A DNA stretch of 50,755 bases from Gemmatimonadota bacterium (lineage in GTDB: Bacteria; 4572-55; J002): contig RFFQ01000102.1 in the NCBI GenBank assembly GCA_003697105.1, positions 1 to 50,755 of the forward strand, in the 5' to 3' direction. Shown piece by piece: positions 32-23,639 of this stretch; position 1 is the stretch's first letter; each line of letters begins with the position of its first letter. Below the pieces are notes generated by a model. That model saw nothing but the letters and a program-made list of their open reading frames with translations, made no database searches and had not been told where the DNA came from. The translations under genes and the position numbers were made by a program.

Positions 32-1435
32 CTATGATTTTTCAACGGGATGGATTGGATTCAGGTTGTATTTTTGTACTTTTTGCCAGAAATTTTTCCA
101 ATCCATTTTTGCTCGACGTGCCGCCTCGCGCATATTTCCATTGGATGCTTGTAGCGCTTGTTGGATATAACCCCGTTCAAATTGAATTTTGGCTTCTTTG
201 AACGGGAGTAATTCCGCAGTTACCGGAGAGGTGGCGGCGACTTCTGGTTTAAGCGGTTCTTCCGCAAACCCGAGGTCTGGGGCATCAATCATGAGGGATT
301 CAGTCATTAAAATCGCTTTTTGAATCATGTTTTCGAGTTCCCGCACATTTCCGTGCCACGGGTGATGGATCAGATGGTGCATTGCCCGTGGGGTAAACTC
401 CCGGACGGGTTTGCCCATCTGCTCGCTGTAAATCTTTAGGAAGTGTGTTGCCAAGATGGGAATATCGGTCGGTCGCTCACGGAGCGGAGGAACGCGAATG
501 GTGATCACATTGAGCCGGTAGTAGAGGTCTTCCCGGAAGCGACCCGCGGAGACTTCTTCTTTCAACCGGCGGTTGGTTGCCGCAATAAACCGGACATCCA
601 CTTTGATGGGTTGTGCCGAACCGACGCGTCGAATTTCATTTTCCTGAATTGTGCGGAGCAACTTCACTTGCATGTTGATGTTCATCTCGCCAATTTCATC
701 CAAAAAGACCGTCCCGCCGTTACTATTTTCGATGATGCCGATGGAGTGGCGATCCGCGCCGGTAAATGCCCCTTTGACGTACCCGAACAGCTCGCTTTCA
801 AACAACGTATCCGGTAATGCCCCACAATTGACGGGGATAAACGGCATTTTAGAGCGGGCACTCAACTGGTGAATTGAGCGGGCGACCAGTTCTTTGCCCA
901 CCCCGCTTTCACCTTCAATCACGACCGGTACATCTGTTTGGGAAACAACTTCTATCTGTTTGAAGACATTCTGAATTGCTGGACTTTTGCCAATAATCAT
1001 CTGCTCCAGACCGCTTTTTTGTAGTTGCAGTTTGAGCAATGCCACTTGCCGCTCTAATTTTCCGGTTCGTAGGAGTCGCTGGGCGCGGGCTTTGATTTCT
1101 TTGAGTTCAAAGGGCTTGGAAATATAGTCATCAATACCGTATTGCAACAATTCCACCGCATGGGCGATGTTTCCATGAGCGGTAATCAACAATGTGCCGG
1201 TATAGGGCGAGCTATCGTGAACCTGCTTCAGGATTTCATCCCCGGAAATATGGGGTAGTTTGTAGTCCGAAATAACGATGTCGTACACGTCCTGATTGAC
1301 CTTTTTCAAACCCTCTTTGCCGTCGGCGGCGGTATGAACTTCGTATTTTTCAAAGGTAAATAGGTCCTTAAGGGTATCCAGAATATCGGGATCATCTTCA
1401 ATGATTAACAATTTCGGGGTATGTGGTTTCATCAC
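32..1435 (-). CDS. Sigma54-dependent response regulator (REC-AAA+-Fis HTH; NtrC/AtoC/PilR family)
   Basis: Receiver (IIEDD...ISDYKLP...SKPF), Walker A GESGVGKE, intact GAFTGA loop, Walker B VFLDEIG, REDLYYRL, WHGNVRELEN, C-terminal HTH (GNMREAARRA). Confidence 0.95.
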   Translation of the reverse strand: MMKPHTPKLLIIEDDPDILDTLKDLFTFEKYEVHTAADGKEGLKKVNQDVYDIVISDYKLPHISGDEILKQVHDSSPYTGTLLITAHGNIAHAVELLQYGIDDYISKPFELKEIKARAQRLLRTGKLERQVALLKLQLQKSGLEQMIIGKSPAIQNVFKQIEVVSQTDVPVVIEGESGVGKELVARSIHQLSARSKMPFIPVNCGALPDTLFESELFGYVKGAFTGADRHSIGIIENSNGGTVFLDEIGEMNINMQVKLLRTIQENEIRRVGSAQPIKVDVRFIAATNRRLKEEVSAGRFREDLYYRLNVITIRVPPLRERPTDIPILATHFLKIYSEQMGKPVREFTPRAMHHLIHHPWHGNVRELENMIQKAILMTESLMIDAPDLGFAEEPLKPEVAATSPVTAELLPFKEAKIQFERGYIQQALQASNGNMREAARRAKMDWKNFWQKVQKYNLNPIHPVEKS

Positions 1436-4083
1436 CGGTTGTCTCCGTTGGTAGCGTGGTTTTCAGTGGGTTGGTAAGGGAAACGAATCGTAAAGGTGGT
1501 GCCTTCATGTTCTTTGCTAGTGAGGGTGATCGTGCCCTGATGTAGCTCGACCCCTTGCTGAATGATGGTCAAGCCTAAGCCGGTACCGCTAATTGTGCCG
1601 ACATTTTCGCCGCGATAAAAAGACTCAAATAGTTTTTCCTGATCGGCTTCCGGGATGCCGATCCCCTCATCCGTGACCGAGAGCCGCACATCTTCCCCTT
1701 CCCGGGCGAGGGTGAGATAGATGGATGTGCCGGATTCTGAGTACTTTATGGCATTGGAAAGCAGATTGGCAATGATGTGGTGCATTAGGTTTTCGTCAAC
1801 GTAAGCTTGGCTGAGTTCTCCGGTAGCTTCATAATGCAGGTGGTGATTTTTGCCTTGCGTCAACTGAAATTCGTGTACCAAACTTTCACCCAGTTCTGCC
1901 AGATCGATTCGTTTTGGCTTAAATTCCAGTTTACCGGCTTCGGCGCGACCCACCAGCAAGACTTGTTCTAGGAGGCGGGTAATATAGTTGACCGATTTCC
2001 GAATCCGGTTGAAGTACTTTGTCTTTTTCGCCGCATCCATTTGGTCGGCGTATTCTTCCAAGACATCGTTGGCGGCAGAAATAGCGGTTAATGGTGTGCG
2101 GAATTCGTGAGATGCTAAGGAGACAAAGCGGGTTTTTAACTGGCTCAGTTCTTTTTCCTTTTTCAGTGCTTCATTTAATTCGCGGGTGCGTTCTGCCACT
2201 TTTTTTTCCAGTTCTGCGGCGAAGGATTTTAGCGCTTCTTGTGCCTGTTTTTGCTCGGTAACATCCCGATTTAGCCCGATATTGCCGATCCAGTTGCCGT
2301 TGTTGTCATACAGGCGGGAGATCACGCTGTAGGTGATGCGGTGTTGCCCGGATTTGGTAATCACCGGTAATTCGCCTTCCCAAACACCCTCTCGATTCAA
2401 GCCTTCAAAGATGCGACGGGTGATGTCAGCGGCTTGATCCGGTGGATTCAGAAATTCGCACGTCCGGTTTAGCATTTCTGCTCGCGACCAGCCGTAAAGC
2501 CGCTCAGTGGCGGGGTTCAGGTCCACGGTGACGCCGTTGAGATCACTGATAATCACGGCTTCATTAATGCTTTCATAGACAAAATTTCGGAGTCGGAGCC
2601 GTTCCTCGATTCGTTTCCGTTCGGTAATGTCACGGATAATCCCAATAGTGCCAATGGGTTGTGGTTTGTTCCCCGGGGATATATTGGGGTCGTATAAAGG
2701 GCGGGTAATGACTTCGCCGTATTTCTGATTGGATTCAAGGGCATCTACATGGGTTTCTCGGGAGGCTTCTTCCGTCAATAACCGGATTTCAACGTGGCGT
2801 GATGCTTCTTCGGATTGCGCCGGTGAGTCTGTCACCAGTTTTGAGGCATCTTGGGGATGAATGAGCGTTGTGATTGGTTGCCCGATCAATTGTGCCGGCG
2901 AAAATCCCAGTTGCTCGACCGCGCGGTTGATAAAGGTAATCCGGTGGTCACAATCTACCCGGTAAACAATATCCGGTAGGGTTTCCATCAAGGTTTTATA
3001 CTTTTCTTCACTGGATCGCAAGGCGTGATCGGCGGACTCTAAATCTGCCAACATCCGGTTGATGGAATCTGCCAAGGCTTGTAGCTCATCCCCGCCGCTC
3101 ATGTGAATCCGGGCGGATAAATCTTGGCGGGTACCGATCTGGGTCACTTGTTGGGTCAGATTCAGGAGCCGGGAGAGCACGAATTTTTCCAAAATCACGT
3201 AGATGGCGATCAAAAATGTGACAATGACAACTGCCAGAGACCACAAAAAATAGCGGATTGCTTGCCGGGTTTGTTGGTAAATAGTCCGCAAGCTATCCAC
3301 TCGTAAGATCAAGCTAGGGTTGCCTTGAATATCCTCCAACAAGATATATCCCCCCAGTGCGACACCATAAAGGGGGTGGACGAAGATCGCGGTACGGTCG
3401 TTTAAAAGCGCCTGTTTTGCCTGCCGGAAATCATCTGGAATCAAAACATCATCCACCGGATAGATCGAAAGGGTGGTCAGCGTTTCTGCCGAAAAGCGGT
3501 CTATCACCGGCTCGGTCAAAACGCGCCCAAGCATCAGGGTGCCGCGGATTGGACCTTCGTCTTCACTGGTGATGATCGGGCGAGATGCTACCATCAGGGG
3601 AGTGTTGTTGTTCGATACAAAGCCGGCAACGCTACTTTGTGGGTTTGAGTGGTCGAGTAATACGGGATTCCGTACCAACAAGGTTTGGAGCAATGACTCG
3701 TCTAGCGGAATTTCGGTTGAATCGATCAAATCATAGGCTTTTCCGGCGACCAGAGACAAATTTTCGTCCAGAATCAACAGGAAATTGAGTCGAGACCCCG
3801 TGAACGTTTGATCCACTAGGTTGGAGGCGACATATTCGGGATTATGATCGTGCACAAATTGGTAAGTATCATCCCATGCGGCCCAATCATACGCCAAACG
3901 GTTCAAGTTCTCGACCTCTTCTTGAAGGGTTTTAGCGACCCGTTGCACGTTTCGTCGGGTGATCTGCCGTTCGACTTCTTCAAAATTTTGGATGATGATC
4001 GTCTGTGCCGAAAAATAAAGTATGACCAGTAATGCGGTGAGGGTCAAACTGACAATCAAAAATGTTTTGCGATGAAGGCTCAT
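1432..4083 (-). CDS. Membrane sensor histidine kinase (TM-CHASE4-TM-HAMP-2xPAS-HisKA-HATPase)
   Basis: CHASE4 motif DWAAWDDTYQFV, HAMP (DELQALADSINRML), two PAS/PAC ends (RDITERK, RDVTEQK), H-box SHEFRTPL, NLLSNAIKYS, DEGIGI, GTGLGL. Overlaps the regulator start by 4 nt. Confidence 0.93.
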   Translation of the reverse strand: MSLHRKTFLIVSLTLTALLVILYFSAQTIIIQNFEEVERQITRRNVQRVAKTLQEEVENLNRLAYDWAAWDDTYQFVHDHNPEYVASNLVDQTFTGSRLNFLLILDENLSLVAGKAYDLIDSTEIPLDESLLQTLLVRNPVLLDHSNPQSSVAGFVSNNNTPLMVASRPIITSEDEGPIRGTLMLGRVLTEPVIDRFSAETLTTLSIYPVDDVLIPDDFRQAKQALLNDRTAIFVHPLYGVALGGYILLEDIQGNPSLILRVDSLRTIYQQTRQAIRYFLWSLAVVIVTFLIAIYVILEKFVLSRLLNLTQQVTQIGTRQDLSARIHMSGGDELQALADSINRMLADLESADHALRSSEEKYKTLMETLPDIVYRVDCDHRITFINRAVEQLGFSPAQLIGQPITTLIHPQDASKLVTDSPAQSEEASRHVEIRLLTEEASRETHVDALESNQKYGEVITRPLYDPNISPGNKPQPIGTIGIIRDITERKRIEERLRLRNFVYESINEAVIISDLNGVTVDLNPATERLYGWSRAEMLNRTCEFLNPPDQAADITRRIFEGLNREGVWEGELPVITKSGQHRITYSVISRLYDNNGNWIGNIGLNRDVTEQKQAQEALKSFAAELEKKVAERTRELNEALKKEKELSQLKTRFVSLASHEFRTPLTAISAANDVLEEYADQMDAAKKTKYFNRIRKSVNYITRLLEQVLLVGRAEAGKLEFKPKRIDLAELGESLVHEFQLTQGKNHHLHYEATGELSQAYVDENLMHHIIANLLSNAIKYSESGTSIYLTLAREGEDVRLSVTDEGIGIPEADQEKLFESFYRGENVGTISGTGLGLTIIQQGVELHQGTITLTSKEHEGTTFTIRFPYQPTENHATNGDNR

Positions 4084-4125
4084 GCACGTTTACTATGGGT
4101 TGCTTTACTGAATGCAAGAATTGAG

Positions 4126-4572
4126 TTACTCACCGGTTGTTTCGCTGGGTGGTGCCATATCGAGATAGCTACCGTCAAACGGTTCGAGACCGAGGTCGGT
4201 CACCAGTAACTTACCGGTGGATTCGTCCACAACAATATCAAGCCGTCCTTGATACCGCTTACCATTACGGGTCATATCCTGTATTGCCCATTGGTACACT
4301 GTCCAATTATCCACTTCTACATTATCGGATCCTAAATACATAAACTGGATGTTCTGAGCAGATTCTAGCTTTTCCTGCAAATCGGCGAAAGCTTCTTTAT
4401 CGGCATCTTTTCCGAGGAGTGTTTTGGCTTGGTCAAACGCTTGTTCTGCTAATACCAATCGGGCAAATTTTTGCACCCGATTTTCGGCCGATTTTTTTGC
4501 GGAGAACATTTCACAGCCAATGGTACTTCCCAGTAGGGCTAACATTAGGCTAAGGATTAGATACGGTCTCAT
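4126..4572 (-). CDS. Hypothetical lipoprotein
   Basis: Start moved to ATG 4572 (SD GAGGAG); signal peptide MRPYLILSLMLALLGSTIG-C with lipobox. Confidence 0.7.
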   Translation of the reverse strand: MRPYLILSLMLALLGSTIGCEMFSAKKSAENRVQKFARLVLAEQAFDQAKTLLGKDADKEAFADLQEKLESAQNIQFMYLGSDNVEVDNWTVYQWAIQDMTRNGKRYQGRLDIVVDESTGKLLVTDLGLEPFDGSYLDMAPPSETTGE

Positions 4573-4622
4573 AGGGAACTCCTCAAGCGGGTTGAAGTGT
4601 TGAATACGCGGGATATGCCATA

Positions 4623-4652
4623 AGCATAACTGCCATCCGGCATATCTGTCAA
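4623..4652 (-). promoter_or_regulatory. Putative sigma70 promoter for the lipoprotein-kinase-regulator unit
   Basis: Minus strand TTGACA (4652-4647), 18 nt spacer, TATGCT (4628-4623), about 50 nt upstream of ATG 4572. Confidence 0.5.
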
Positions 4653-4671
4653 TTTTTATTTGTTGGTACAC

Positions 4672-4708
4672 AAATGCCCGGCAGAACCCTTTGCTCTACC
4701 GGGCATTT
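4672..4708 (-). terminator. Hairpin, probable terminator of the minor-pilin operon
   Basis: Minus strand AAATGCCCGGTAGAG-loop-TTCTGCCGGGCATTT, about 30 nt after the pilX-like stop; U-tail is short. Confidence 0.55.
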
Positions 4709-4739
4709 CCCCGTACCTATCATTTGATACCGGTAAATA

Positions 4740-7157
4740 TTAGTGTTCCAGATATTGTAAGATATTTACTTTACTGTCGCCGGGGAACAGTTGAACAATC
4801 GTTTCAATTTCGCGGGTGGTTTGGTCGCGGGGATTGGTGTAGTGGGCGGATAGGGCAATTTTAGAACCACCGACATTATTGAATTGATAGACTTGTACTT
4901 CCTGATTGATACTACCGGTACGGCGAGCATCGGCGCCATTATTGGTTGCCCCAATCACCTCTTGGTAGCCATCACCGTTCAAGTCGGTCACCAGCATTCT
5001 ATTGCCGAATCCACGTTTATTTCCGGTCTGGTTGGGTCCGCAATTGGCACCGTCGGAATCGCAAGGATATAGAGTTAAACTCCCGACACTCTTTAATTTG
5101 CCATCAGCCGTTGATCCAAAGGCGGCGAATCCGGCGGCAGTACCATCGTATGATGTCCCGCTGGCAATTTCCAAACCGGGGATTTCGGGGTCCATCTCCA
5201 CAAAAACAGGCGTTCCGTTGATTCCGCCGGGAACACCCAAATCGATGCGGTAGGAAATCGGTCGATCTTCTCCATTGGGTTTAATTGCGTACCGGTAGTG
5301 CCCTTGATGATCTTTTTTCACATTATTGTTGGAGTAAAAATAGGTTGCTGTGAGGGCATCCTGCCAATCCAGATTTGCCCAATCCGCGCCTTTGTAATCA
5401 GCGGAGCTGGATTTTAAGTGCCGCTCAAAGGCGACATTGACCACGTAGAGCAAACCGGCGGAGGTCTGGATCATGATTTCCAGTAAGTCTTCCGGTACTT
5501 CTTGGGGGTCTCGATTGCCCACACCCGGCGGATGCTGTGCAAATAACTGTCCCGGGTCCACCGTGTTATCGGCATTGGCAGCGGCGGGCCACAAGGGAAT
5601 CCGGATATCATCTGCCACGTGGACATCCGTATCGTTTTTGTCGCCGTCCCAGTTGAGGTCGGCATCCAGAGCGACCTCATTCAAGACCATATCTTGATCG
5701 TCTAAGACTACCGCATGAGTGGAGGCTTCGTAGGAACGACCTCCAAACTGGGAACCGGAGTTAAAGGTGGCAATGATTTCCAAATCACCGTCACCGTCCA
5801 AATCCCAACTGGTCATGTGGTTATCCCCCACGAAGTCATCACTGGTATTGACCCGGTCGGGTATCAGATTACCGTTACCATCGGTCAGGAGCGAGCCATC
5901 CCCATCGGCTTGAGTTTGCAACCCGACCCGATACGTCCAACGGGGTTCTCGAAGATTCCACGGATTGGGGTCTGCCCCGTCATAACAGTGAATAAAATGT
6001 CCGTCATTAACAATAATATCACTCACACCGTCCCCCGTTACATCAGCAACGACTGGTTTTGCCACAAAATGTCCCCGTGAGGAAGAGGCATTACCGACAT
6101 CATCCGGGTGAATTTGCCCGCTTCCGTAGGTTTTGGCATTAATAACACCTAATGACGTCATGGTACCATCGCTGTTTTTCGAGAGAATTTCCAGTGAATT
6201 GCCGGAGGGGACGATCAGCTCATCGCCGGGTATGGAGGCATCAACGTTCCCGACTTCCAAATCCCACCAACTGGGTTGGGATGAATTTATTTGATAGGAT
6301 GCTGAAAGAATCGGGGGTTCCGTGCTATTCAAGCGGGTGTAAACATAAACATTTGTTCCATTATCACCGGTATCTTTAAAGATCAGGTCTTCGGCACCAT
6401 CTCCATCGATATCCGGTAATATTTCTTTAATCGAGCCGTCGGAAAGCATTACTTTTTTGGTCACAAAATTGCCTCGAATATCGGGGTTGCCCGGTACATC
6501 TAACCAAGGGTCGCCAATTTGTTCCAGATTATAGCACCCATCCGGACCTTGTTTAAACACATACTTCCGAATTTCCCCTTCGCTGGATGCCACCAAAATG
6601 GCTTTGTAGCAGGTGGACGGGCGATTGATGTCTTCACATTCATCGATCACAATCGGCGCTGTGAAAATATTCCCATATACCTGAGAGACATCATCCATGC
6701 AAGCATTTGTTGCGGTTTTTGCGACGGTCCCTTGAATACCCATTAAGCCCACCCAAATGGTATCATTCACACCATCTGATCCGGTGAGAACAATTTCCAG
6801 GGTATCCGGCGTGGGGGAGCCATATTCATCATTGCCCAGTAAACTTTCGTACAATTCGGTAACGCCATAAAATTCTTTATCCGTGACGGGGTCGGTATCT
6901 TTGGTTAGGGGATGGGGGTAGGTTTCATCACCGTACATAATCAAGCGAATGGCTTCTTCGATACCGGCTTCGGCGGTGTAGTAGGCTTGTGCCCCTTTGG
7001 CTTGATTATCCGCAATCCGGCTTTCGGTAGAGGTCATCATCAAAAATGCGGTCGCTAACAGAGAAAGGATAATCATAAACAGCAGAGCCATGACCAGCGC
7101 GGAGCCGCTTTCCTGAGAAACATACCAATGCGTCTTTCGCGAATGAGTCCATCTCAT
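4740..7157 (-). CDS. PilX-like minor pilin with FG-GAP/VCBS beta-propeller
   Basis: Start at ATG 7157 (SD AAGGAG). Class III signal QESG|SALVMALLF lacking Glu5, as in PilX/GspK; PilX_N motif QAYYTAEAGIEEA; about 7 Ca-binding FG-GAP-type motifs (DIDGDGAEDLIF, DVTGDGVSDIIV, DLDGDGDLEIIA, DLNGDGYQEVIG). Confidence 0.85.
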   Translation of the reverse strand: MRWTHSRKTHWYVSQESGSALVMALLFMIILSLLATAFLMMTSTESRIADNQAKGAQAYYTAEAGIEEAIRLIMYGDETYPHPLTKDTDPVTDKEFYGVTELYESLLGNDEYGSPTPDTLEIVLTGSDGVNDTIWVGLMGIQGTVAKTATNACMDDVSQVYGNIFTAPIVIDECEDINRPSTCYKAILVASSEGEIRKYVFKQGPDGCYNLEQIGDPWLDVPGNPDIRGNFVTKKVMLSDGSIKEILPDIDGDGAEDLIFKDTGDNGTNVYVYTRLNSTEPPILSASYQINSSQPSWWDLEVGNVDASIPGDELIVPSGNSLEILSKNSDGTMTSLGVINAKTYGSGQIHPDDVGNASSSRGHFVAKPVVADVTGDGVSDIIVNDGHFIHCYDGADPNPWNLREPRWTYRVGLQTQADGDGSLLTDGNGNLIPDRVNTSDDFVGDNHMTSWDLDGDGDLEIIATFNSGSQFGGRSYEASTHAVVLDDQDMVLNEVALDADLNWDGDKNDTDVHVADDIRIPLWPAAANADNTVDPGQLFAQHPPGVGNRDPQEVPEDLLEIMIQTSAGLLYVVNVAFERHLKSSSADYKGADWANLDWQDALTATYFYSNNNVKKDHQGHYRYAIKPNGEDRPISYRIDLGVPGGINGTPVFVEMDPEIPGLEIASGTSYDGTAAGFAAFGSTADGKLKSVGSLTLYPCDSDGANCGPNQTGNKRGFGNRMLVTDLNGDGYQEVIGATNNGADARRTGSINQEVQVYQFNNVGGSKIALSAHYTNPRDQTTREIETIVQLFPGDSKVNILQYLEH

Positions 7158-7238
7158 GTCTCTTCTCCTTAAACACTTCGGGTATTGGCAGGGTTGAAGG
7201 GCAAACACTTTGTTTGCCCCATTTTATTAATTTTCCGT

Positions 7239-10200
7239 TTAGCGACAGGTGATAATCGCTACATAATTATTAGATTGGTTATCTTTCAAGCCAGGTAACT
7301 CAACCAATTCACCCATGTTATAATCATTGGCAAAAAGATAATATACATCGCCTGAAACACCCAGCTCATCGGGGAGCAAGTTCCAATTGCTTAACCATGA
7401 GGGGGTGTTTGCGTCCTGAGGTTTGGCGACAATTACCGTGATGTTTCGATCGGCGGTGAATTCGATCAACGTGGTATTCCAATGAACATTTGCGTCTGAA
7501 TTGGCGGTTTTAATCCACAGCCCATCTCGAACCGATGCCGGCATGGAGGTCACCCGGTAATTGAAGTCGTCAATGTAGATGGAACTTCCCGTGAGCATAT
7601 TTGCCGTATAATATGGCATCGGGTAGGACGACCCCGGTGATAAATCTGTGTACGAAATTTGATCCGTACAATTTTCATCCCGTGGAACCGGACAGACCCA
7701 GAAATTTTTGAACTGGACTTTCGATCGGTCCCCGTTTTTAAGACCAATAATGGAGGCATCAATATTCATTGTGTCCCCGACGACGATCATCCAGCCGGGT
7801 TCAGCGACGCCTTCTTCCCACGCTTTGGCGTATAAACGTTCCCCTTGCACCCGTAGTTTGATGAAATACCATGTGTTTAGTAAGGATTCATCCGGCATAT
7901 CTGCCATGTTTGCCAGACCGACGTTCCAATCCGAGGAACCCAATGTTCCGGAAAAGGTATCTTCGGACATCAGGAACATTTTATCCTTGGTAAAGAGCAA
8001 GGAGTTGAAATCGTAGTTGGTATAATCGTTGTACCGGAAGATAATCCCAACCCCATCTTTGGGTAAATCAGAGCGGCTGTTGGGAGAATTGGTGATACGC
8101 ATCATGGTACGGATTTCATACCCGTCGCTGGTCAGTGGGGTCGAAAAGGTATAAATATCGTTCGACCCACTATACCGGTTGGAGTAATAGGTGCTATCCG
8201 CTGGATTGGTTGACCACCAACTATCATTGGATTCCGTAAAGCCCAACGGCGTGCTTCCGCTGGTGAAATCATCGTGATAGATATACGGTGTACACCACAT
8301 ATCTTTTTCTGTAGGGATGGCGCCTCCATCATCTTCATAACTGGCGGGGCAAATGACAAAGTCATCCACCAGAATGTAGCCTCTATTAGGGTCACTTCCA
8401 CTGGCAGCGGCATAAATCCCTGGGGAACCGGTCAAAATCCGGTCATCGTAAGTCTCCAGAATCCAGGAGCCGGGTTCACCTAAGCCCTCGCGCCACCATT
8501 TTGCCTGATGTCGCTGTACCGGGATACCGTTTTTCTCCGTCCGGGTGACTTTGTATTTTACCCAATACCATTCGCCATTAACCGGTACAAAATCTTGCCG
8601 GTACCGGTCACCGGACTCATTTTGGTTATTTGCGTTTGTCCACGATCCATTGACCCGGCCTCGAATTTGGGCATAATTGCTTTCAAAAACTAAGCGCCAG
8701 AAATTATTTTCATCTTCATAACCAAAAATCAGCCCTTTGTAAGAGGATTCTTCTGGGAATTGGATTCGGGCTTTAATGTAGTATTCATCCCCCACGACAC
8801 TGGGTACCCAGGCGGCACCAACGCCACCACCCCCACAGCCGGAACGGGCATGGAAGTAACCGTTACAATTATCATACGGGTCGGTTTCTACCCGCCAACC
8901 CCCGCCATTGCTACACTCAGGTTTGGAGTAATACTGCCAGTCGTCATTTGTTGCCCAGGCACTGGTAATGTACCCCTGATTAAAATCATCTACGAACAAA
9001 GGATTGTCACAGATTTGGAATTGGGGTGCTGAGGTGCCCTCCACCAATACTTGCACGGTATCTGCCGCAAAACAACCTTCTGGGTTGTAGGCGCGGACTT
9101 CTATGGTCACAAAACCGCCACAGGTCGCGGGGGGCCAGTTATAGGTCAGGGTTTCTACTCCGTTGGGAGTACCATCAAATGCCATTGTGTAGGTATCGGG
9201 GTTGCCGTCACCATCCTCATCAATACTGAAGATGAATTCCACCTCACTGACATAACTGGTACCGGAGAGGTTCACATTAATGGGGGTTGATGTCCCTTCA
9301 CTACCGCCGATAATGGGGGCATGATTCGGATACGATTCGGGTGAGGTAATTTCCACGGTGGCGGGTACACAGGGTGCCCGATAGACGAAAAAGTCATCCG
9401 CACAGCCATCCTCACCGGCGTAGATTCCGGCGGCGCCCCAGAGCAAGGCATCCGGTGCCCACGCCTGACCGGAACGCCAACTGGCGATATCATCCCACGT
9501 AATGTGATGATCCCACGAATTCCGATCCGCTGGAGGGGTACCGCTATCATCACCAGGGAACCAGACATAGATGTTGTCGTCCAACACCCGGATAGCCATG
9601 CGCCACCAGTTGAAGTATTCGCTCACGGTTGAAGGTGTCGGGTTCTCGGGATCGTAAGGGTTACCTTGCTCACCGTTAAAACTACCATCTGGGTCCATCC
9701 AATTGAGGGTCTCTAGCGTGTGGTAGGTTTCTTCGTTTTGATATTCGACCAGTAGATCCAGTGTATAACTCGTTTTGTTTTGCCGCCGGACCACCACCGC
9801 GATGTAATTGTCCCGATTTTGCAAACGGGCAATTAACCCCATTTGGTGAATACTGCCGGAATAATCTTTGTCGGGATCGCCTTTTAGACGAGCGATGACA
9901 ATGTAATCATCATTATAATCCGTCTGGTATTTTTCTTCATCTTTTACGGCTCGTCGTTCGTCGTTCCACATGCTACCGTTGTAATAATAGACCCGATTGT
10001 TACAAAAAGCGTCATTACAGGCGACGTTCGTGGGTCCGGTAGCCGGAACGCCTTTCACGTCCCAGCGGCTGCTACTGGATAGGTCGCGCCAGTCGGAAGA
10101 GCGGGGATATTGCCAAAAACTTTCCTGCCGGTCGGTGAAATTATCGGCAACAATAATATTTTCTTCTGCTACGTTCAATTCAGACCACGTGGCACCTTCA

Positions 10201-12635
10201 CACGGATCACCATCACCACACCCCCAATTGTAGATCGACATTTCGTAATCACTAAAGAAGCCGTTGGTATCCCATGCTCGTACCAGCAGGTAGTGTGTCC
10301 CGGGCGGTACCGGCGGGTCAAGATAGCCCGGTTCCCCCGGATTGGCGTAGAAATCAACGATCCCATCCCCAAAAATCAGGAAACGGCTGGCACTTTTGAC
10401 TCCAATTTCCCCACCGAAATTGTAATCACCGGTTTCATAAACGGTGGTTTGGGTATCATAATGGACCCATTCCCCCGCATTATCATAATCGATGAAGAAC
10501 TGGACACTATCGATACCGCGATCATCCCATACCCACGCATCATAGATGAACGTGCTGTTACAATTGACTTCATCCCCGTAACTGGGAGAGTCAATTTCAA
10601 CCACAGGGGGTGTATTCCCTGCCGTGACATTTAGGATGCAGCGCTGCTGCCATCTACAGCCGGTTTTATCTTGTACCTCAAACCAGAAGGTATAAGGGCC
10701 CTCCGCCATGCCGATAAAATTCATTGGGACATCCGGTTTGCTGGTATTGCTTTCATTCATGCGGAAATGAATTTGTTCTTCTCCATTGCGCATGACCACA
10801 TCACTGCTACTGTAACTATCCCAATACCCATTAAGGGTCGGATCATCGGAGATATTACCCAGGCGGGCGCTCCACGGCAGGTTTGTTCCTTCCGGGTAGG
10901 CGCCTTGATAAATACGGAAGTACCCGTTATTCATAATAGGTGAGCCGTTGGGGTGCGGGGTAACATAAGCGTGCCAGGTAATCGCTTCGTCAGAACTGAA
11001 TTCCGCGGTTTGTCCATCTTCACACCCTAAGTTGGGTGAACCTCCGGTAAAGACAAATTCGATGGTGGGGCGAAGTTGTTCGCATTCAAAATTGCGGATG
11101 GTGACCTCGATTTCTTCTTCTGCCACATGATTGGCATATTCAACATCATACTCTCCGCTTTCGGGGTCGCTGTGTTTATTGTAACTGATGGCACGCAGGT
11201 AGTAAACATCGTCCACATATTGGGTGGTGTTGAAGGGAATTTGCAAATAACAATCTTGTGCCGTAATATTGCCCCCAAAATCTGCCGCGTAGATGGTGGT
11301 CAGCAGGGTATCTACCCCATTTCCGTTTTTGGATTCCAGGTAGAGTTCCACTTTAGTGATGCCGGCGAGTTCTTTTTTAAGGGTAATTTGGATGCTATCT
11401 TCACCGGCAATTTCCTGGTTGTCCACCGGATAGACCAAATCCACATTGGGCCAATTGTCCACATAGATGGTGTGGATGGGTGACGTGGATGTTTTACCAC
11501 CGGTTTCATAGGCTTTTGCCTGAATGACCATCGGTGTATTCAAGGGAGCATCTTTGTCGAGCGGTAGGGTGTTGATGGTGCCCTCAAACGGAGCGCCGGT
11601 ATCCGTTTCATGCAGGTTCAGCTCAAACATACTCGCCCCCATATAGAGTTCTATTTTTTCAATAGAACACTGATTACAGGGTCCGGGGATACTGGCGGAA
11701 GCCGCCCATTCGGCAATCCCGTGTAATCGATTGACCCCGCCCGGATCATGGGCGGGATAGGCAATTGACACAATGGGACTGTAGGGGCAAAGGGTGCAAT
11801 TGTCACAGTCTGCCGGCCGGTTCGGATCGCCTTCAGGATACGCTAAACAGGGATCGACGTCCTGATCGTCCGGGCGGATGACTTCATTAGCGACAAAGTA
11901 CCCGTAACTTCGGGGACGGATGCTCTGTTGGACGGCAAATTTAGCACTGCCTTCCGTGATGAGAAATGCCAAGTCCACCCGACGAATATTTTGTAGATGC
12001 CAACCAGTTATCGGCATTCCCGGATAATTTTCGGTATATTCAATGAGGGAATCGGGATTGGAGGGGTCTGCGGGTCCAAAATAGCGCAGTTTGAAGCCTT
12101 TCACCCCAGAGACAATTGGTGCCGGTTGGGGGAAGATGCGGGCACCGCTGCTATCCACCGCCATATCTTCGCGGTATAAAGTAAAGGTGCTATCTTCGGT
12201 CATGTCGGCAATAAAATACCGGATGTGTTCACCGGGGTCATTCACATCGCTATCCCCGTAAAGCGGCCGGTCATCGGCATCGACGTTCCGGTAGCGTCTG
12301 GCATTTTCCGCTTCTACCGGGTCTAAGACACCATTGCCATTGAGGTCTTCGGAGTTAAAATCCCCCACAAACTCAATGGTGTCTTGCGACGCAATTTTGA
12401 AGGTCGCATCAAACGCATTGAAAGGGTCGCTCCCTGCTTGGCGCATATCTTCGGTGATCAAGTCTAACACGGCACGTCCATTTTGCTGGACTTCAATTGC
12501 TCGTTGACCCCGGTCGTAAGTGTCCCGGCTGTGGATGTTCATCATGATGAGTGTTCCCACAATCAAGCTGAAGATAACGATGGCGATCATCACTTCTGCC
12601 AGTGTGAAACCGTGTCTGTTGAGTTGGAATCTCAT
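7239..12635 (-). CDS. Giant (1798 aa) modular PilW-like minor pilin with about 5 Ig-like and 3 ConA/DUF1080-like modules
   Basis: RHG|FTLAEVMIA prepilin motif; PilW-type QQNGRAVLDLITEDMRQAG and IRRVDL; Big_7-like units (PVVEIDSP...IDSVQFFID...GTHYLLVRAWD); lectin-like units (DDF...GLIF...WYWVK...AKWW...EPGSW...DDFVI). SD AGGAGG. Confidence 0.85.
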   Translation of the reverse strand: MRFQLNRHGFTLAEVMIAIVIFSLIVGTLIMMNIHSRDTYDRGQRAIEVQQNGRAVLDLITEDMRQAGSDPFNAFDATFKIASQDTIEFVGDFNSEDLNGNGVLDPVEAENARRYRNVDADDRPLYGDSDVNDPGEHIRYFIADMTEDSTFTLYREDMAVDSSGARIFPQPAPIVSGVKGFKLRYFGPADPSNPDSLIEYTENYPGMPITGWHLQNIRRVDLAFLITEGSAKFAVQQSIRPRSYGYFVANEVIRPDDQDVDPCLAYPEGDPNRPADCDNCTLCPYSPIVSIAYPAHDPGGVNRLHGIAEWAASASIPGPCNQCSIEKIELYMGASMFELNLHETDTGAPFEGTINTLPLDKDAPLNTPMVIQAKAYETGGKTSTSPIHTIYVDNWPNVDLVYPVDNQEIAGEDSIQITLKKELAGITKVELYLESKNGNGVDTLLTTIYAADFGGNITAQDCYLQIPFNTTQYVDDVYYLRAISYNKHSDPESGEYDVEYANHVAEEEIEVTIRNFECEQLRPTIEFVFTGGSPNLGCEDGQTAEFSSDEAITWHAYVTPHPNGSPIMNNGYFRIYQGAYPEGTNLPWSARLGNISDDPTLNGYWDSYSSSDVVMRNGEEQIHFRMNESNTSKPDVPMNFIGMAEGPYTFWFEVQDKTGCRWQQRCILNVTAGNTPPVVEIDSPSYGDEVNCNSTFIYDAWVWDDRGIDSVQFFIDYDNAGEWVHYDTQTTVYETGDYNFGGEIGVKSASRFLIFGDGIVDFYANPGEPGYLDPPVPPGTHYLLVRAWDTNGFFSDYEMSIYNWGCGDGDPCEGATWSELNVAEENIIVADNFTDRQESFWQYPRSSDWRDLSSSSRWDVKGVPATGPTNVACNDAFCNNRVYYYNGSMWNDERRAVKDEEKYQTDYNDDYIVIARLKGDPDKDYSGSIHQMGLIARLQNRDNYIAVVVRRQNKTSYTLDLLVEYQNEETYHTLETLNWMDPDGSFNGEQGNPYDPENPTPSTVSEYFNWWRMAIRVLDDNIYVWFPGDDSGTPPADRNSWDHHITWDDIASWRSGQAWAPDALLWGAAGIYAGEDGCADDFFVYRAPCVPATVEITSPESYPNHAPIIGGSEGTSTPINVNLSGTSYVSEVEFIFSIDEDGDGNPDTYTMAFDGTPNGVETLTYNWPPATCGGFVTIEVRAYNPEGCFAADTVQVLVEGTSAPQFQICDNPLFVDDFNQGYITSAWATNDDWQYYSKPECSNGGGWRVETDPYDNCNGYFHARSGCGGGGVGAAWVPSVVGDEYYIKARIQFPEESSYKGLIFGYEDENNFWRLVFESNYAQIRGRVNGSWTNANNQNESGDRYRQDFVPVNGEWYWVKYKVTRTEKNGIPVQRHQAKWWREGLGEPGSWILETYDDRILTGSPGIYAAASGSDPNRGYILVDDFVICPASYEDDGGAIPTEKDMWCTPYIYHDDFTSGSTPLGFTESNDSWWSTNPADSTYYSNRYSGSNDIYTFSTPLTSDGYEIRTMMRITNSPNSRSDLPKDGVGIIFRYNDYTNYDFNSLLFTKDKMFLMSEDTFSGTLGSSDWNVGLANMADMPDESLLNTWYFIKLRVQGERLYAKAWEEGVAEPGWMIVVGDTMNIDASIIGLKNGDRSKVQFKNFWVCPVPRDENCTDQISYTDLSPGSSYPMPYYTANMLTGSSIYIDDFNYRVTSMPASVRDGLWIKTANSDANVHWNTTLIEFTADRNITVIVAKPQDANTPSWLSNWNLLPDELGVSGDVYYLFANDYNMGELVELPGLKDNQSNNYVAIITCR

Positions 12636-12687
12636 GAAAATAACCTCCTGATAAGGTCGTTATACTCGGATACTTATGATTTCTTTA

Positions 12688-13278
12688 TTATGTCCCTAAT
12701 TTATAAGGGGTTCGTACTGTATTTAGTCGGTATTCCTGCATCTGGGAGCGTCCTCGCCATTCCACAATGACTTCGATGTACATAGGGGGTACGGGACCAT
12801 CACCGGGGCAGGGTCCTAACGGGTCAACGTGCCCAATGCTTTCATCCACATGCGCGGGCAGTGCATTGCGGCTAATTGAAAGTGTTTGCAAATTATCCGG
12901 ATTTCCCGGCGGAGAGTGACAGACGACCACTTTTTGCCCATTATTTTGAAAGAGTTCGCTTTCAATGACCCACCGGCGAACAAACGGCGCGGGTTCGGTT
13001 TGCGGGTCGCCGTCCACATCGATATAAACGGTATCGGCATGTTCTCCATGGTCTAAGATGCAGTCATTCCGGATGAAACACTTTCCGTCTAAGGGTTCGG
13101 TTTTTAATTTTTCCATCAGGTCTCGTGCGAGATAGACGGCACGGCTCTTCCGAGCGGCGTAATTAATTTCGCTGTAGCTCTCCGGGAACAGTTGGAAAAT
13201 AGCAAGCAAGCCAAAAGCGAGGATCGCCGCCGCAATAATTACTTCAACTAGATTGAATCCGAATTCATTTCGTCGCAT
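12688..13278 (-). CDS. PilV-like minor pilin
   Basis: EFG|FNLVEVIIAAAILAFGLLAI with Glu5; AVYLARDLMEKLK; FVRRW and IEVIVEW strands. Confidence 0.85.
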   Translation of the reverse strand: MRRNEFGFNLVEVIIAAAILAFGLLAIFQLFPESYSEINYAARKSRAVYLARDLMEKLKTEPLDGKCFIRNDCILDHGEHADTVYIDVDGDPQTEPAPFVRRWVIESELFQNNGQKVVVCHSPPGNPDNLQTLSISRNALPAHVDESIGHVDPLGPCPGDGPVPPMYIEVIVEWRGRSQMQEYRLNTVRTPYKLGT

Positions 13279-13316
13279 GGTTTATCTCCTTACTTAATGG
13301 TTTATCTCCTTACTTA
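13277..13316. repeat. Perfect 20-bp tandem duplication containing the pilV Shine-Dalgarno
   Basis: ATGGTTTATCTCCTTACTTA x2 (13277-13296, 13297-13316). Confidence 0.9.
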
Positions 13317-13332
13317 AAGGGGTGTCTCGTAG

Positions 13333-13929
13333 TTATTCTTGGGTTTGAAGGCGGGTAATCTCTTTATTTTTGACAAAACCGCCAATGCTGACCTCAATAT
13401 CAGCGGTATAGCGGTTGCTTTTATGTTGTAACTGAATTCGTGCCGGAAAGCCGTTACGCAGATTATCAATTTTCACGGTACCTTTGGGTTCAAAAATCAC
13501 GTAATATTCTGTAGAATCACTAAATACAATATGCTGTGGTAGAAAGATCATGGCGTCTTCTACGGTCGCGTTACCACTTCGTTCAATGATTTGGTCGGAT
13601 CGCTCGGTACGGACAAAATTATTAATGGTTTGCCACCGCCCCGAACTTAAAATCGGAGCACCATCTCCGCCAAAACAACCTCGCCGGCAGGTGCGCACCA
13701 GATAGGCATTGCTGAAATTAGAGAAATCCAGCATATAAAACCGGCGGGTTCGTGTTGCTTCCTCCCGCGCGAGTCGTAAATGGCTTGACACCTGCATTTG
13801 GGCGGATTCGATACCAGCACGCTGAACCCGGCTCACCAGCATGTAAACTGATGAGGAAGCAATCAGCCCGATAATAACCGCCACGAGCGATAATTCCAGC
13901 AGAGTAAAGCCTTTGGATGTTCGGATCAT
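13333..13929 (-). CDS. FimT/FimU (GspH-like) minor pilin
   Basis: Start at ATG 13929 (SD GGAGG); SKG|FTLLELSLV; LRLAREEA; IFEPKG and VSIGGFVK resemble FimT/GspH C-terminal motifs. Confidence 0.8.
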   Translation of the reverse strand: MIRTSKGFTLLELSLVAVIIGLIASSSVYMLVSRVQRAGIESAQMQVSSHLRLAREEATRTRRFYMLDFSNFSNAYLVRTCRRGCFGGDGAPILSSGRWQTINNFVRTERSDQIIERSGNATVEDAMIFLPQHIVFSDSTEYYVIFEPKGTVKIDNLRNGFPARIQLQHKSNRYTADIEVSIGGFVKNKEITRLQTQE

Positions 13930-13978
13930 GGGACCTCCTAATGTATTACAGGTTAAAACAATCGTTTGGCTCCCTCTA

Positions 13979-13994
13979 CGCAATGTGCGTGCCC
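13979..13994 (-). promoter_or_regulatory. Sigma54 (-24/-12) promoter of the minor-pilin operon
   Basis: Minus strand GGGCACGCACATTGCG matches the consensus TGGCACG-N4-TTGC in all but the first base, 50 nt upstream of ATG 13929. Confidence 0.8.
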
Positions 13995-14023
13995 TTCCGT
14001 AATTATGTTTATAACGTATTATT

Positions 14024-14036
14024 TATCAAATGGTTA
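14024..14036 (+). promoter_or_regulatory. IHF binding site
   Basis: TATCAAATGGTTA is an exact WATCAANNNNTTR match in AT-rich DNA, 30-42 bp upstream of the sigma54 -24 element. Confidence 0.6.
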
Positions 14037-14150
14037 TCGGATTTTATTCTGGAAGACCTTAAAGCAACATAACGCTGGTAGTTTAGTTGCTTTACTGTTA
14101 ATAACTTGCTGAAAATAAAGTTGTTATCGTTAAACACTGCAGAATAAGTT

Positions 14151-14195
14151 ATTATGTAATACACTTCCCTAGGGGTGGGAAACCGGTTACATAAT
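14151..14195. promoter_or_regulatory. Dyad-symmetric candidate upstream activator sequence (bEBP enhancer)
   Basis: ATTATGTAA-tacac-TTCCC-N7-GGGAA-accgg-TTACATAAT, about 160-200 bp upstream of the sigma54 promoter. Confidence 0.55.
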
Positions 14196-14300
14196 TCGGC
14201 GGTTGTGGGTACCGCATCGATTTTCTATTGATTCCCATCTGAAAAACCATTAACGTGGGGGGAATTCGCTCTTCATGAGTTTTGTTACCCGGATGAAACG

Positions 14301-22326: not shown

Positions 22327-23140
22327 AGAGCAGGCGTACCAGAGCATCTTAAATAAAGTACGGGACATTGTGCGGTATGACTGCACCCAATACAAAGAAA
22401 AATGCCTGCGACGACGCCTTACGGTGCGGATGCGAGCACATCACGTAACCACATTCGAGGATTATCTGGAAATTTTAGAGCGTAATCCGAACGAATTTCA
22501 GGAATTAAAACGTGTATTGACCATCAACGTCAGCCGCTTCTTCCGAAATAAATCGGTCTTTGATTATATCTTCCAGCACCTTATGCCGGATATTATGGAA
22601 CAAAAAAGACGGTCGCGCTCCCGCTGTTTACGGTTTTGGAGTGCCGGATGTGCCGGGGGGGAAGAACCCTACTCCTTAGCAATTATGTTGCACCAGTTTT
22701 ATCCCTATGTGTTCAGCCGTTATGACCTCAGCATTGTGGGCACAGATATTGACGAAGAAAGTTTGCAACGTGCCCGAACCGGTGTTTATGATGATATGGC
22801 AATGGAGGAAGTCCCCGCCGAGTGGATAGACCGCTATTTTGAAGGAAAAAAACAGTATCGCCTGATTCCCACCATCAAAGAGAAAGTCACCTTTCAGATT
22901 CTGGATTTAGTGCAGGATGCGGCTTTGGAGCCGTGCGATTTAATTTTGTGCCGCAATGTGATGATCTACTTTGGGCGCGAACTTCAAGAAAAGGTTTTTA
23001 ATAAATTGGCAAATGCACTTCTGCCCGGCGGTTACATCGTTTTAGGCAAAACCGAAACGACCATCGGTTTTCATACCGAACCGTTTATAAAATCCGTGAA
23101 TTTACGCGAACGGATTTACCAGCGACAAGACCATCGCTAG
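22319..23140 (+). CDS. cheR: Chemotaxis protein-glutamate O-methyltransferase
   Basis: TINVSRFFRN, WSAGCAGGEEPYS, GTDID, DLILCRNVMIYF, LGKTE. Confidence 0.95.
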   Translation: MTEEQAYQSILNKVRDIVRYDCTQYKEKCLRRRLTVRMRAHHVTTFEDYLEILERNPNEFQELKRVLTINVSRFFRNKSVFDYIFQHLMPDIMEQKRRSRSRCLRFWSAGCAGGEEPYSLAIMLHQFYPYVFSRYDLSIVGTDIDEESLQRARTGVYDDMAMEEVPAEWIDRYFEGKKQYRLIPTIKEKVTFQILDLVQDAALEPCDLILCRNVMIYFGRELQEKVFNKLANALLPGGYIVLGKTETTIGFHTEPFIKSVNLRERIYQRQDHR

Positions 23141-23153
23141 AAAAGAGGGAAAC

Positions 23154-23630: not shown

Positions 23631-23639
23631 GGTAGGTGC

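Follow-up and report, generated by a model that had tools for sequence, protein, structure and literature searches.

The DNA studied here is contig RFFQ01000102.1 of a Gemmatimonadota bacterium (assembly GCA_003697105.1), which was analysed over its whole length of 50,755 nucleotides (nt) and is called the window below; it is contig C172 of a 4.18-Mb genome that lies in 199 contigs and is 96.85% complete. Four prepilin open reading frames (ORFs) were found in a row in the window, all on the minus strand and with 30 to 54 nt between neighbours. Along the operon their types follow the order GspH/FimU, GspI/PilV, GspJ/PilW and GspK/PilX (H, I, J and K types in what follows), and a hairpin lies beyond the last of them:

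13333..13929, minus strand: FimU/GspH-like minor pilin with Glu5, 198 residues (aa); the ORF opens at 13983, and translation probably starts at the ATG at 13929, which a GGAGG ribosome-binding site precedes
12688..13278, minus strand: PilV/GspI-like minor pilin with Glu5, 196 aa
7239..12635, minus strand: PilW/GspJ-like giant pilin with Glu5, 1798 aa
4740..7157, minus strand: PilX/GspK-like protein without Glu5, 805 aa if translation starts at Met18 (7157), the same length as in the public gene call
about 4674..4706, minus strand: stable hairpin 3' of the pilX-like stop codon (-37.3 kcal/mol, z -6.05, 0 of 200 shuffled sequences equally stable)

Read from a GTG, the PilX-like ORF covers 7208..4740 and has 822 aa. 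No clear U-run follows the hairpin, and it was absent from the terminator scan list.

All four proteins have type IV pilin or pseudopilin signal peptides. Those of the first three, read by eye, are of class III with Glu5 (KG|FTLLE, FG|FNLVE and HG|FTLAE); the leaders are short and basic, with Gly at -1, Phe at +1 and Glu at +5. The N-terminus of the PilX-like protein reads SG|SALVM and has no Glu5, as expected of a K type. Against the N_methyl model (PF07963, cut-off 21.2 bits) the giant pilin scored 26.6 bits, and the FimU-like and PilV-like proteins, with 20.6 and 19.5 bits, fell just under the cut-off; TIGR02532 was above its cut-off in the H and J types. Among the models of the core minor pilin set, the curated cut-offs of GspH and PilX_N were reached and that of PilV was not. 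The FimU-like protein matched GspH (PF12019) with 23 bits (cut-off 21) and TIGR01708 gspH at E 2.2e-7, under its cut-off. The PilX-like protein matched PilX_N (PF14341) with 35.9 bits (cut-off 25.5) and GspK (NF037980) at E 2.4e-4, and the PilV-like protein matched TIGR02523 pilV at E 2.6e-8, with 34.5 bits against a cut-off of 52.2, and XpsI and GspI more weakly. In Pfam and NCBIfam the giant pilin had no match to PilW (PF16074) and matched GspJ (TIGR01711) only at E 0.058. The best NCBIfam matches, all sub-threshold, were PilV, GspI, GspJ, HpsC and GspK, and they fell in H-I-J-K order.

An earlier note on this DNA, made from its letters alone, had described four co-oriented prepilins in fimT/U-pilV-pilW-pilX order, Glu5 in three of them and none in the PilX-like one, and sizes of 1798 aa for the PilW-type and 805 aa for the PilX-type protein. 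The order is borne out by the ORF positions together with the Pfam and NCBIfam matches, the distribution of Glu5 by the leaders, and the sizes by the ORFs, on the giant one of which two sequencing runs agree. Its placing of the operon end stands in part: the hairpin does follow the pilX-like stop and no PilY1 is encoded there, but genes on the same strand continue past the hairpin and a second, paralogous cluster lies beyond.

One hot-springs-metagenome study offers two public runs, each with a contig over the giant ORF; the runs count as separate assemblies and not as independent organisms, and both may be the source of the genome. The contig of run X1 (58,954 nt) spans 4000-14400 of the window, and its sole difference is T>C at 8080, inside the giant pilin gene; the contig of the second run (8,487 nt) spans 4927-13413 with 0 differences. 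An assembly chimera as the origin of the giant ORF was ruled out, since the two runs agree and a paralog on another contig, C35, is built alike.

The mature giant pilin has a size of about 201 kDa, an isoelectric point of 4.3 and 29 Cys residues. Its pilin module is followed by immunoglobulin (Ig)-like and concanavalin A (ConA)-like modules:

11916..12635, minus strand: pilin module, about aa 1-240 (N_methyl 26.6 bits)
10206..11783, minus strand: about four Ig-like beta-sandwich modules, aa ~285-810 (Big_7; boundaries drawn by eye)
9351..10205, minus strand: ConA-like module 1, aa 811-1095, which aligns with modules 2 and 3, the C35 module and the PF06439 domain of protein P0152, and whose putative fold is taken from module 2
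9021..9350, minus strand: Ig-like module, aa 1096-1205, with a weak match only (Big_7 E 0.033)
8340..9020, minus strand: ConA-like lectin/glucanase-fold module 2, the modelled one, aa 1206-1432
7671..8339, minus strand: ConA-like module 3, aa 1433-1655 (26% identity to module 2 over 135 aa, E 6.8e-5)
7239..7670, minus strand: C-terminal module of unknown family, aa 1656-1798, and stop codon

The pilin module has 33% identity over 228 aa (E 1e-34) to that of the J-type paralog on C35, with 33-39% across comparisons, and residues 6-95 match the PF16074-positive PilW of G002, a genome of the same class, at E 5e-8. Weak matches to HpsC (E 2e-5), Verru_Chthon C and GspJ were also obtained with this module, and the C35 paralog had a weak T2SSJ match (E 0.023). 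Compared with its C35 paralog and with the G002 PilW, the giant has an additional acidic stretch with a DLNGNG motif at aa ~86-122 (12270-12380), which may be a calcium (Ca)-binding loop.

Pfam scans of ten segments of the giant found Big_7 as the sole family, with no match for the C-terminal module. In the whole protein Big_7 (PF17957) scored 47.8 bits (E 2.3e-12) over two stretches, the best being aa 677-724; when the four Ig-like segments were scanned singly, aa 676-810 matched at E 1.1e-5 and aa 401-530 at E 0.027, and the other two had no match. A Big_7 domain is also present elsewhere in the window, in a 248-aa protein encoded at 26571-27317 on the plus strand (E 2e-10).

An AlphaFold2 (AF2) model of ConA-like module 2 was compared with 48,161 chains using VIA-align. 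Lectin or jelly-roll-type chains dominated the top 50, with Z from 13.9 to 10.6. The best match was the thrombospondin C-terminal domain (Z 13.9, root-mean-square deviation (rmsd) 2.9, 163 residues aligned), and others were galectins, ERGIC-53, legume lectins, CBM66 and the DUF1080 protein 3hbk (Z 10.7). The model also matched, with Z 12.3, the lectin module of the Streptococcus sanguinis minor pilin PilC (7oa7), and the results of Foldseek concurred. With respect to the ConA-like superfamily, module 2 thus has the jelly-roll fold in its model, while its sequence reached no family model. The motif GIIFRYNDYTNY of module 3 matches the PF06439 (DUF1080) domain of P0152 (pairwise E 6e-4), and the C-terminal 143 residues of the giant resemble solely the unannotated C-terminus of the same protein (29% identity over 106 aa, pairwise E 2e-5). 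At the level of fold, therefore, the modelling supports a giant pilin that bears lectin-like and Ig-like modules, with sugar binding as a putative function.

Relatives of the giant were scarce. A homolog search with the whole protein found only itself; among shorter proteins, aa 1206-1798 gave one weak match, P0152, at E 6e-3. A feature search of the ESM Atlas with aa 811-1798 returned leads under 0.9 only (Big_7, DUF1349), and a sequence search of the PDB gave no match for the giant or the PilX-like protein. Both of these are modular pilins in the sense of PMC8179133, the giant joining N_methyl to Big_7 and the PilX-like protein joining PilX_N to FG-GAP.

Three parts were distinguished in the PilX-like protein:

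6732..7157, minus strand: N-terminal part with the leader, a long alpha-1 helix (model aa 19-75) and the first strands (aa 118-141)
4872..6731, minus strand: FG-GAP beta-propeller with long loops, model aa ~143-762
4740..4865, minus strand: three C-terminal strands outside the propeller (aa 765-774, 781-791 and 796-804) and stop codon; predicted local distance difference test (pLDDT) value of the block about 55-75

The protein matched FG-GAP with 36.7 bits and FG-GAP_3 with 27.2 bits. Three DxDxDG-type motifs are found in the propeller and a fourth reads DLNWDG; DxDxDG motifs are typical of FG-GAP Ca sites. When an AF2 model was compared by VIA-align with the same set of chains, aa ~143-762 matched single beta-propellers, the eight-bladed ones best: WDR41 (Z 21.4, rmsd 3.0, 322 residues aligned), BamB (Z 20.6), the designed eight-blade Ika8 (Z 20.1) and the Vibrio cholerae matrix protein Bap1 (Z 17.3). 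The ESM Atlas holds its own model of the protein, in which the stretch from about 85 to 762 matches clusters of FG-GAP propellers; sorting domains of the type IX secretion system (T9SS) are present in many of these clusters. A feature search of the Atlas with the PilX-like protein gave no usable match, and Foldseek on the whole model returned generic multi-propeller proteins only, with template modelling (TM) scores up to 0.25.

The family members that reach the C-terminus have in common the consensus pattern IITAEA..R.IEAVVRL..NYEIL.W.ER. A propeller grafted onto the C-terminus was ruled out, as three conserved strands lie C-terminal of it; the model, with an overall pLDDT of 59.1, instead shows the propeller as a bulky insert, flanked on one side by the N-terminal pilin part and on the other by the C-terminal strands, in the manner of the insertions known from PilK homologs. 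By analogy with the in-cis strands treated in PMC13533445, we propose that the C-terminal strands complete the pilin sheet of the PilX-like protein in cis. The closest structural neighbours of the propeller were FG-GAP propellers with T9SS-type tails. C-terminal Por_Secre_tail and FlgD_ig domains, at 1555-4446 of contig C145 and elsewhere, show the presence of T9SS-type cargo in this organism, and such cargo may be where the propeller module came from.

Scanned with HMMER, a set of 1.84 billion representative proteins yielded 322 matches at E up to 1e-3, four of them, the query included, at E up to 1e-10. Nearly all 322 covered the N-terminal helix alone. Those that extended beyond it were P0003 (763 aa), P0004 (565 aa), P0005 (673 aa), P0007 (a 150-aa C-terminal fragment) and the C35 paralog, so that four K-type relatives are found outside this genome among these representatives. 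P0003 and P0005 likewise join PilX_N to FG-GAP. When 54 long PilX_N-type matches were scanned, PilX_N was present in 48 and DUF7305 also in seven, and the sole FG-GAP protein among them, P0010, was without PilX_N. A word-index homolog search with the PilX-like protein found only itself. Searched against the species genomes, P0003 gave 10 loci, and at the five of these that were inspected (L032-L035 and L038) no prepilin cluster was present; a single prepilin-pattern flag, in L032, proved to be a false positive in a 907-aa cytoplasmic-looking protein. Among metagenome contigs of the Joint Genome Institute (JGI), profile A5 returned 185 stretches and no relative, and P0005 returned two loci, both coding for Sec-signal FG-GAP proteins and not for pilins.

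PilY1 (PF05567) was not found in the genome, with a best E of 0.089 at the completeness given above, nor did the PilX-like protein match PF05567 at E up to 0.1. The domain was also absent from two other genomes of the same class, beyond which the species set contains no further member of the phylum; as a positive control, it exceeded its cut-off in 15 of the 151 genomes of a wider sample. Since there is no PF05567 match, the FG-GAP propeller is regarded as an analogue and not as a PilY1 member. Filament machinery is encoded in the same genome as the co-oriented cluster of four types. T2SSE ATPases gave 12 matches over the cut-off and two weak ones below it, PilT retraction ATPases are present, and there are two secretins, both beside PilM/N/O-type genes. 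PilM-PilN-PilO and an AMIN-domain secretin are on contig C18, and PilB-PilT-PilC on C171. A second machine set on C24 consists of a pilin, PilT, a pilin, PilM, an STN secretin, a 1064-aa Big_1 protein, PilB and PilC, and a prepilin peptidase lies on C123. GspL and GspM were not found over their cut-offs in the genome, with positive controls. The lectin-like and Ig-like modules that had been read into the PilW-type protein (Big_7 match; module 2 model against lectin chains), the propeller in the PilX-type protein (FG-GAP matches; AF2 model with VIA-align; ESM Atlas model), the lack of pilY1 (genome-wide search with its control) and the presence of type IV pilus (T4P) machinery in the genome (ATPases, secretins, PilM/N/O, PilC and prepilin peptidase) were thus all recovered.

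In G002 the minor pilins are small (167, 227, 138 and 189 aa), with Pfam matches to GspH, PilW and PilX_N that mark them as genuine, and with a PilV-like type besides; the giant forms are therefore specific to the lineage studied. In this cluster of G002 (contig C8, 3-4236) the four small minor pilins are followed by a Sec-signal protein longer than 597 aa that has PPC and Golvesin_C domains; it may act as a tip adhesin in trans, where the studied genome has modules in cis.

The last 99 nt of contig C35 (9002-9100) are identical to 1-99 of the window, and the contig of run X1 runs on for about 8.5 kb past the left end of the window. The locus therefore continues on C35; its length is roughly 23 kb. 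The further features of the locus, by position on C35 or in the window, are as follows:

1176-8767 of C35: second cluster, with genes for a prepilin (194 aa), an ORF product (111 aa) and GspH-like (173 aa), PilV/GspI-like (147 aa), J-type (1157 aa) and K-type (709 aa) proteins
13979..13994 of the window, minus strand: candidate sigma-54 promoter GGGCACGCACATTGCG (GG-N10-GC), some 50 nt in front of the first start codon
4652-4623, minus strand: sigma-70-like promoter of the lipoprotein gene
4126..4572, minus strand: predicted lipoprotein with a lipobox-like TIGC, 148 aa, without Pfam or NCBIfam match
1432..4083, minus strand: sensor histidine kinase CHASE4-HAMP-PAS-PAS-HisKA-HATPase (CHASE4 E 3.9e-38, HATPase_c E 7.9e-31)
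32..1435, minus strand: NtrC-type sigma-54 activator with receiver, AAA+ and HTH_8 domains (Sigma54_activat E 1.7e-71), its last codons inside the 99 nt common with C35

The C35 cluster comes after a canonical terminator (14-bp stem and U7). Its J-type prepilin has three Calx-beta domains and its K-type protein FG-GAP repeats. The PilV-like proteins of both sets are 38% identical and the K-type proteins align end to end with 22% identity; one ConA-like module is common to both J-type proteins, and their remaining modules differ. On these sequence comparisons the locus is a pair of tandem paralogous sets, with an apparently conserved carrier and exchanged cargo. Because the kinase and activator genes sit between the sets, their position suggests that they control one or both of them. 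From base composition, about 14 sites with the core GGCAC[GA]N4TTGC would be expected in the 4.18-Mb genome; only six are present, among them the candidate promoter of the first set. A weaker GG-N10-GC element lies upstream of the second set, and rpoN is present on contig C10. From the candidate promoter, rpoN and the activator we infer that the operon would be under sigma-54 control.

In Pseudomonas, Neisseria and Myxococcus, adhesion and capping are carried out by a separate PilY1/PilC protein. For the locus described here we favour, with a probability of about 0.6 and on the strength of models and analogies, a PilY1-independent tip in which the cap subunit would complete its own fold and the J subunit would display a lectin-like arm. 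The four genes would supply the core minor-pilin set (H/FimU, I/PilV, J/PilW and K/PilX) that primes and caps a type IVa-like pilus, and the PilMNOPQ, PilB/T/C and prepilin peptidase of that pilus would be those encoded elsewhere in the genome. In the lineage studied, the adhesive and capping functions would be built into the pilins themselves. We infer that the four subunits would form a complex located at the pilus tip, where the K subunit, since it lacks Glu5, would be the apical one. The J subunit would follow its pilin module with about nine beta-sandwich modules (Ig-like Big_7 modules, three ConA-like modules and one C-terminal module), which would hang from the tip as a flexible and probably glycan-binding arm. 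In the K subunit, an FG-GAP propeller with Ca-site-like DxDxDG loops would stand between the pilin part and the C-terminal strands. These strands would complete the K pilin sheet in cis, so that the C-terminal strand of PilY1 would not be needed to license assembly. The kinase and activator between the sets would probably choose which tip set is made.

Several results weigh against this PilY1-independent tip. No PilW or GspJ model was reached at its cut-off by the globular part of the J-type module, and in PDB sequence searches the profiles of the I and J modules matched N-terminal pilin helices alone. The three ConA-like modules had no Pfam match at E up to 5. Both AF2 models are of moderate confidence: that of module 2 was made from a five-row alignment (pLDDT 58.4, predicted TM score (pTM) 0.65) and that of the PilX-like protein from six rows, those of the query and its relatives from the HMMER scan (pTM 0.61). 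When the PilX-propeller family was aligned by hhalign with the small PilX of G002, the N-terminal helix alone was aligned, and homology of the C-terminal hairpin is unsupported for that reason. The sigma-54 pattern with two mismatches is not enriched in the window (23 sites against 26.4 expected), a pattern that is not informative here, only the stricter core being so. Finally, either of the two machine sets is a candidate user of these pilins, and the 1064-aa protein of the second set (7172-10366 of C24, between the secretin and PilB), in which Big_1 domains and invasin-like Ig domains occur, may be a secretin-associated protein or a non-pilin adhesin, possibly one that acts in trans. A complex prediction for aa 8-196 of the PilV-like protein with aa 10-250 of the giant scored 0.01 against a mark of 0.32; it was made from three-row alignments and carries no weight for or against binding.

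Possible, if some way from probable, is a more elaborate reading in which the locus would be a switchable tip cassette. The kinase and activator would pick the giant tip for a shared T4P machine, and the propeller cap would work in cis. One tip would be ConA-like and Ig-like and the other Calx-beta and ConA-like, giving two adhesive specificities per pilus, and in both tips the propeller of the Glu5-less subunit would take on, in cis, the part that PilY1 plays in trans: capping, Ca-dependent control and, through the subunit's own strands, the licensing of assembly. Regulated tip exchange is suggested by the arrangement of the locus, because two sets flank one sensor-regulator pair. If true, a propeller-capped pilus would have arisen here by an independent path of evolution.

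We consider it rather unlikely that the products belong to a non-pilus type IV filament, either a pseudopilus like that of the type II secretion system (T2SS) or an Hps-like filament for polysaccharide secretion, in which the H-I-J-K proteins would tip a short periplasmic or envelope-spanning fibre and the lectin-like modules would handle secreted polysaccharide or cargo instead of serving adhesion. Several of the best NCBIfam matches do point this way (GspH, XpsI/GspI, HpsC and GspK, at the E values given above), but they lie far under the curated cut-offs. The STN-type secretin and the PilB/GspE-like ATPase of the C24 set would suit such a filament; however, both secretins lie beside PilM/N/O-type genes, PilT is present, and GspL and GspM were not found over their cut-offs. 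ConA-like and DUF1080-like folds are typical of carbohydrate-active proteins, and the hps locus of cyanobacteria is described as encoding a PilX_EPS subfamily with very large insertions (PMC13759059). A periplasmic pseudopilus would nevertheless have little room for an arm of about 200 kDa.

Still less probable, in our judgement, is that the large proteins use the prepilin signal only for export and for anchoring in the membrane and act as unpolymerised surface or periplasmic adhesins or enzymes, the gene order being a relic. Their globular pilin parts are highly diverged and lie under the family cut-offs, and the K-type family, with its four outside relatives, is so rare that it could mark a lineage-specific side use; Verru_Chthon is a further H/I/J/K-like cassette of unknown role, the model of its protein A having 1296 positions. 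Against this, a full H-I-J-K set has been kept twice, Glu5 is present in H, I and J of the window and missing in K, and the J pilin module is conserved between the paralogs (33-39%) while the modules behind it have been swapped (Calx-beta in the paralog). There is likewise little chance that a separate, non-homologous tip adhesin docks in trans, with the pilin modules as accessories and not as a substitute for PilY1: the Sec-signal protein with PPC domains behind the small minor pilins of G002, the Big_1 protein of C24, and MshQ, which is no homolog of PilY1 and is predicted to add a strand to MshP of MSHA pili (PMC13533445), would fit such docking, but no large non-pilin gene follows either cluster (the first is followed by the hairpin and the gene of the 148-aa lipoprotein, the second by a gene on the opposite strand), and the K-type protein has conserved C-terminal strands of its own.

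The locus resembles the FimU-PilV-PilW-PilX set of Pseudomonas and Myxococcus and the GspH-I-J-K set of the T2SS in having four co-oriented types with Glu5 missing from K alone. As in the Pseudomonas and Myxococcus set, the machinery is encoded elsewhere and a sigma-54 two-component system is nearby; in P. aeruginosa pilSR adjoins fimT/fimU. Unlike that set, the present one has no PilY1 domain, its J and K proteins have 1798 and 805 aa rather than a few hundred residues, and family models were reached at their cut-offs for GspH and PilX_N only.

Modular pilins were defined by Raynaud et al. (2021; PMC8179133), whose InterPro survey counts >1,200 of them in 264 architectures and notes that PilY1 proteins are likewise modular. 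In the S. sanguinis pilins PilB (a vWA module) and PilC (a ConA-like lectin module), as here, non-pilin modules follow the prepilin motif, and the most extreme multi-domain case in the main text of that survey has 860 residues. By comparison, about nine extra modules are here carried by a J-type core minor pilin of a diderm. Ellison et al. (2026; PMC13533445) showed that PilK either supplies the final strand of its own sheet in cis or receives it in trans from PilC/PilY1; where a filament has no tip adhesin, its PilK homolog often contains a large insertion. A beta-solenoid is present in the PilX proteins of cyanobacteria (482-799 aa), and it has been proposed to take over the capping by PilY1 (PLoS Genetics 2026; PMC13759059). 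Like the protein described here, Thermus ComZ, Caulobacter CpaL, cyanobacterial PilX and GspK are, in the accounts of these two papers, apical subunits that lack Glu5 and act without PilY1/PilC, their pilin part being separated from the C-terminal strands by a bulky domain; their insertion is a beta-solenoid or alpha-domain, whereas that of the present protein is an FG-GAP beta-propeller. In Nanosynbacter lyticus, a monoderm episymbiont, PilX1 (jelly roll, about 380 residues) and PilX2 (seven-bladed propeller, 577 residues) are reported as minor-pilin adhesins with C-terminal binding domains, and the propeller is likened to PilY1 (bioRxiv 10.64898/2026.10.06.756255). The present locus differs in that the propeller is inside a PilX_N protein and is best matched by eight-bladed ones (BamB, Ika8), and in that three putative jelly rolls are on a separate J-type subunit.

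The TIGRFAM Verru_Chthon cassette D, B, C, A (TIGR02596, TIGR02598-02600) likewise consists of four prepilin-like proteins of H/I/J/K type with a very large K-like member (1296 positions). The matches to its models were far under the cut-offs (D 18.4 against 70, B 17.4 against 51.4, C 16 against 256.5 and A 12.8 against 332.3 bits), and a full-text literature search found no paper on the cassette. The same kind of search found none that joins minor pilin, FG-GAP and type IV pili, and no fused PilX-propeller build as seen here; a search with PilW, lectin, Ig-like and modular terms found no giant PilW-type pilin among titles and abstracts.

The idea that PilY1 is replaced by modules borne on pilins, put forward in the earlier note, has been published already (PMC8179133, PMC13759059, PMC13533445, bioRxiv 10.64898/2026.10.06.756255). 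Pilin-borne adhesin modules, enlarged PilX/PilK proteins without PilY1, the in-cis strand and a propeller-bearing minor pilin are all known from work of 2021-2026. Absent from the literature searched are a J-type carrier of 1798 aa, FG-GAP inside a PilX_N protein, and two tandem sets around a regulator pair. The locus indicates that the J (PilW-type) subunit, and not the apical K alone, can be the main cargo carrier, with about 201 kDa and about nine extra modules. The propeller is the fold class of the PilY1 C-terminal domain, recruited into K from the unrelated FG-GAP family, which suggests that a propeller at the tip is functionally favoured. The licensing of assembly by a terminal beta-strand, in trans or in cis, was established in the work of 2021-2026, and the locus extends that picture; as the phylum of this hot-spring organism is represented by three genomes in the species set searched, it also widens the sampled diversity of tip complexes. 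How so large a tip would pass the secretin had been raised as a question; the problem would be eased by the beads-on-a-string build of the giant and by the precedent of PilY1-class proteins of ~1000 residues at tips.

Some further genes were noted in the window and elsewhere in the genome. Divergent from the operon, 14301-16577 on the plus strand encodes a 758-aa protein whose N-terminal part matches the PorV/PorQ-family barrel NF033709 with 91.4 bits (cut-off 90). Its C-terminal tetratricopeptide (TPR) repeats also match pilus lipoproteins of the PilW/Tgl type weakly, and the pilus or the T9SS may have in this protein a partner in the outer membrane. A chemotaxis adaptation cluster, cheR-cheD-cheB, is found at 22319-24728 on the plus strand. 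A small Ras/Arf-like GTPase is encoded at 30970-31566, also on the plus strand, and a second one lies at 5138-8713 of contig C54, beside a Roadblock/LC7 protein and a 583-aa T2SSE-like ATPase; the C54 genes resemble an MglA/MglB polarity pair near pilus motors.

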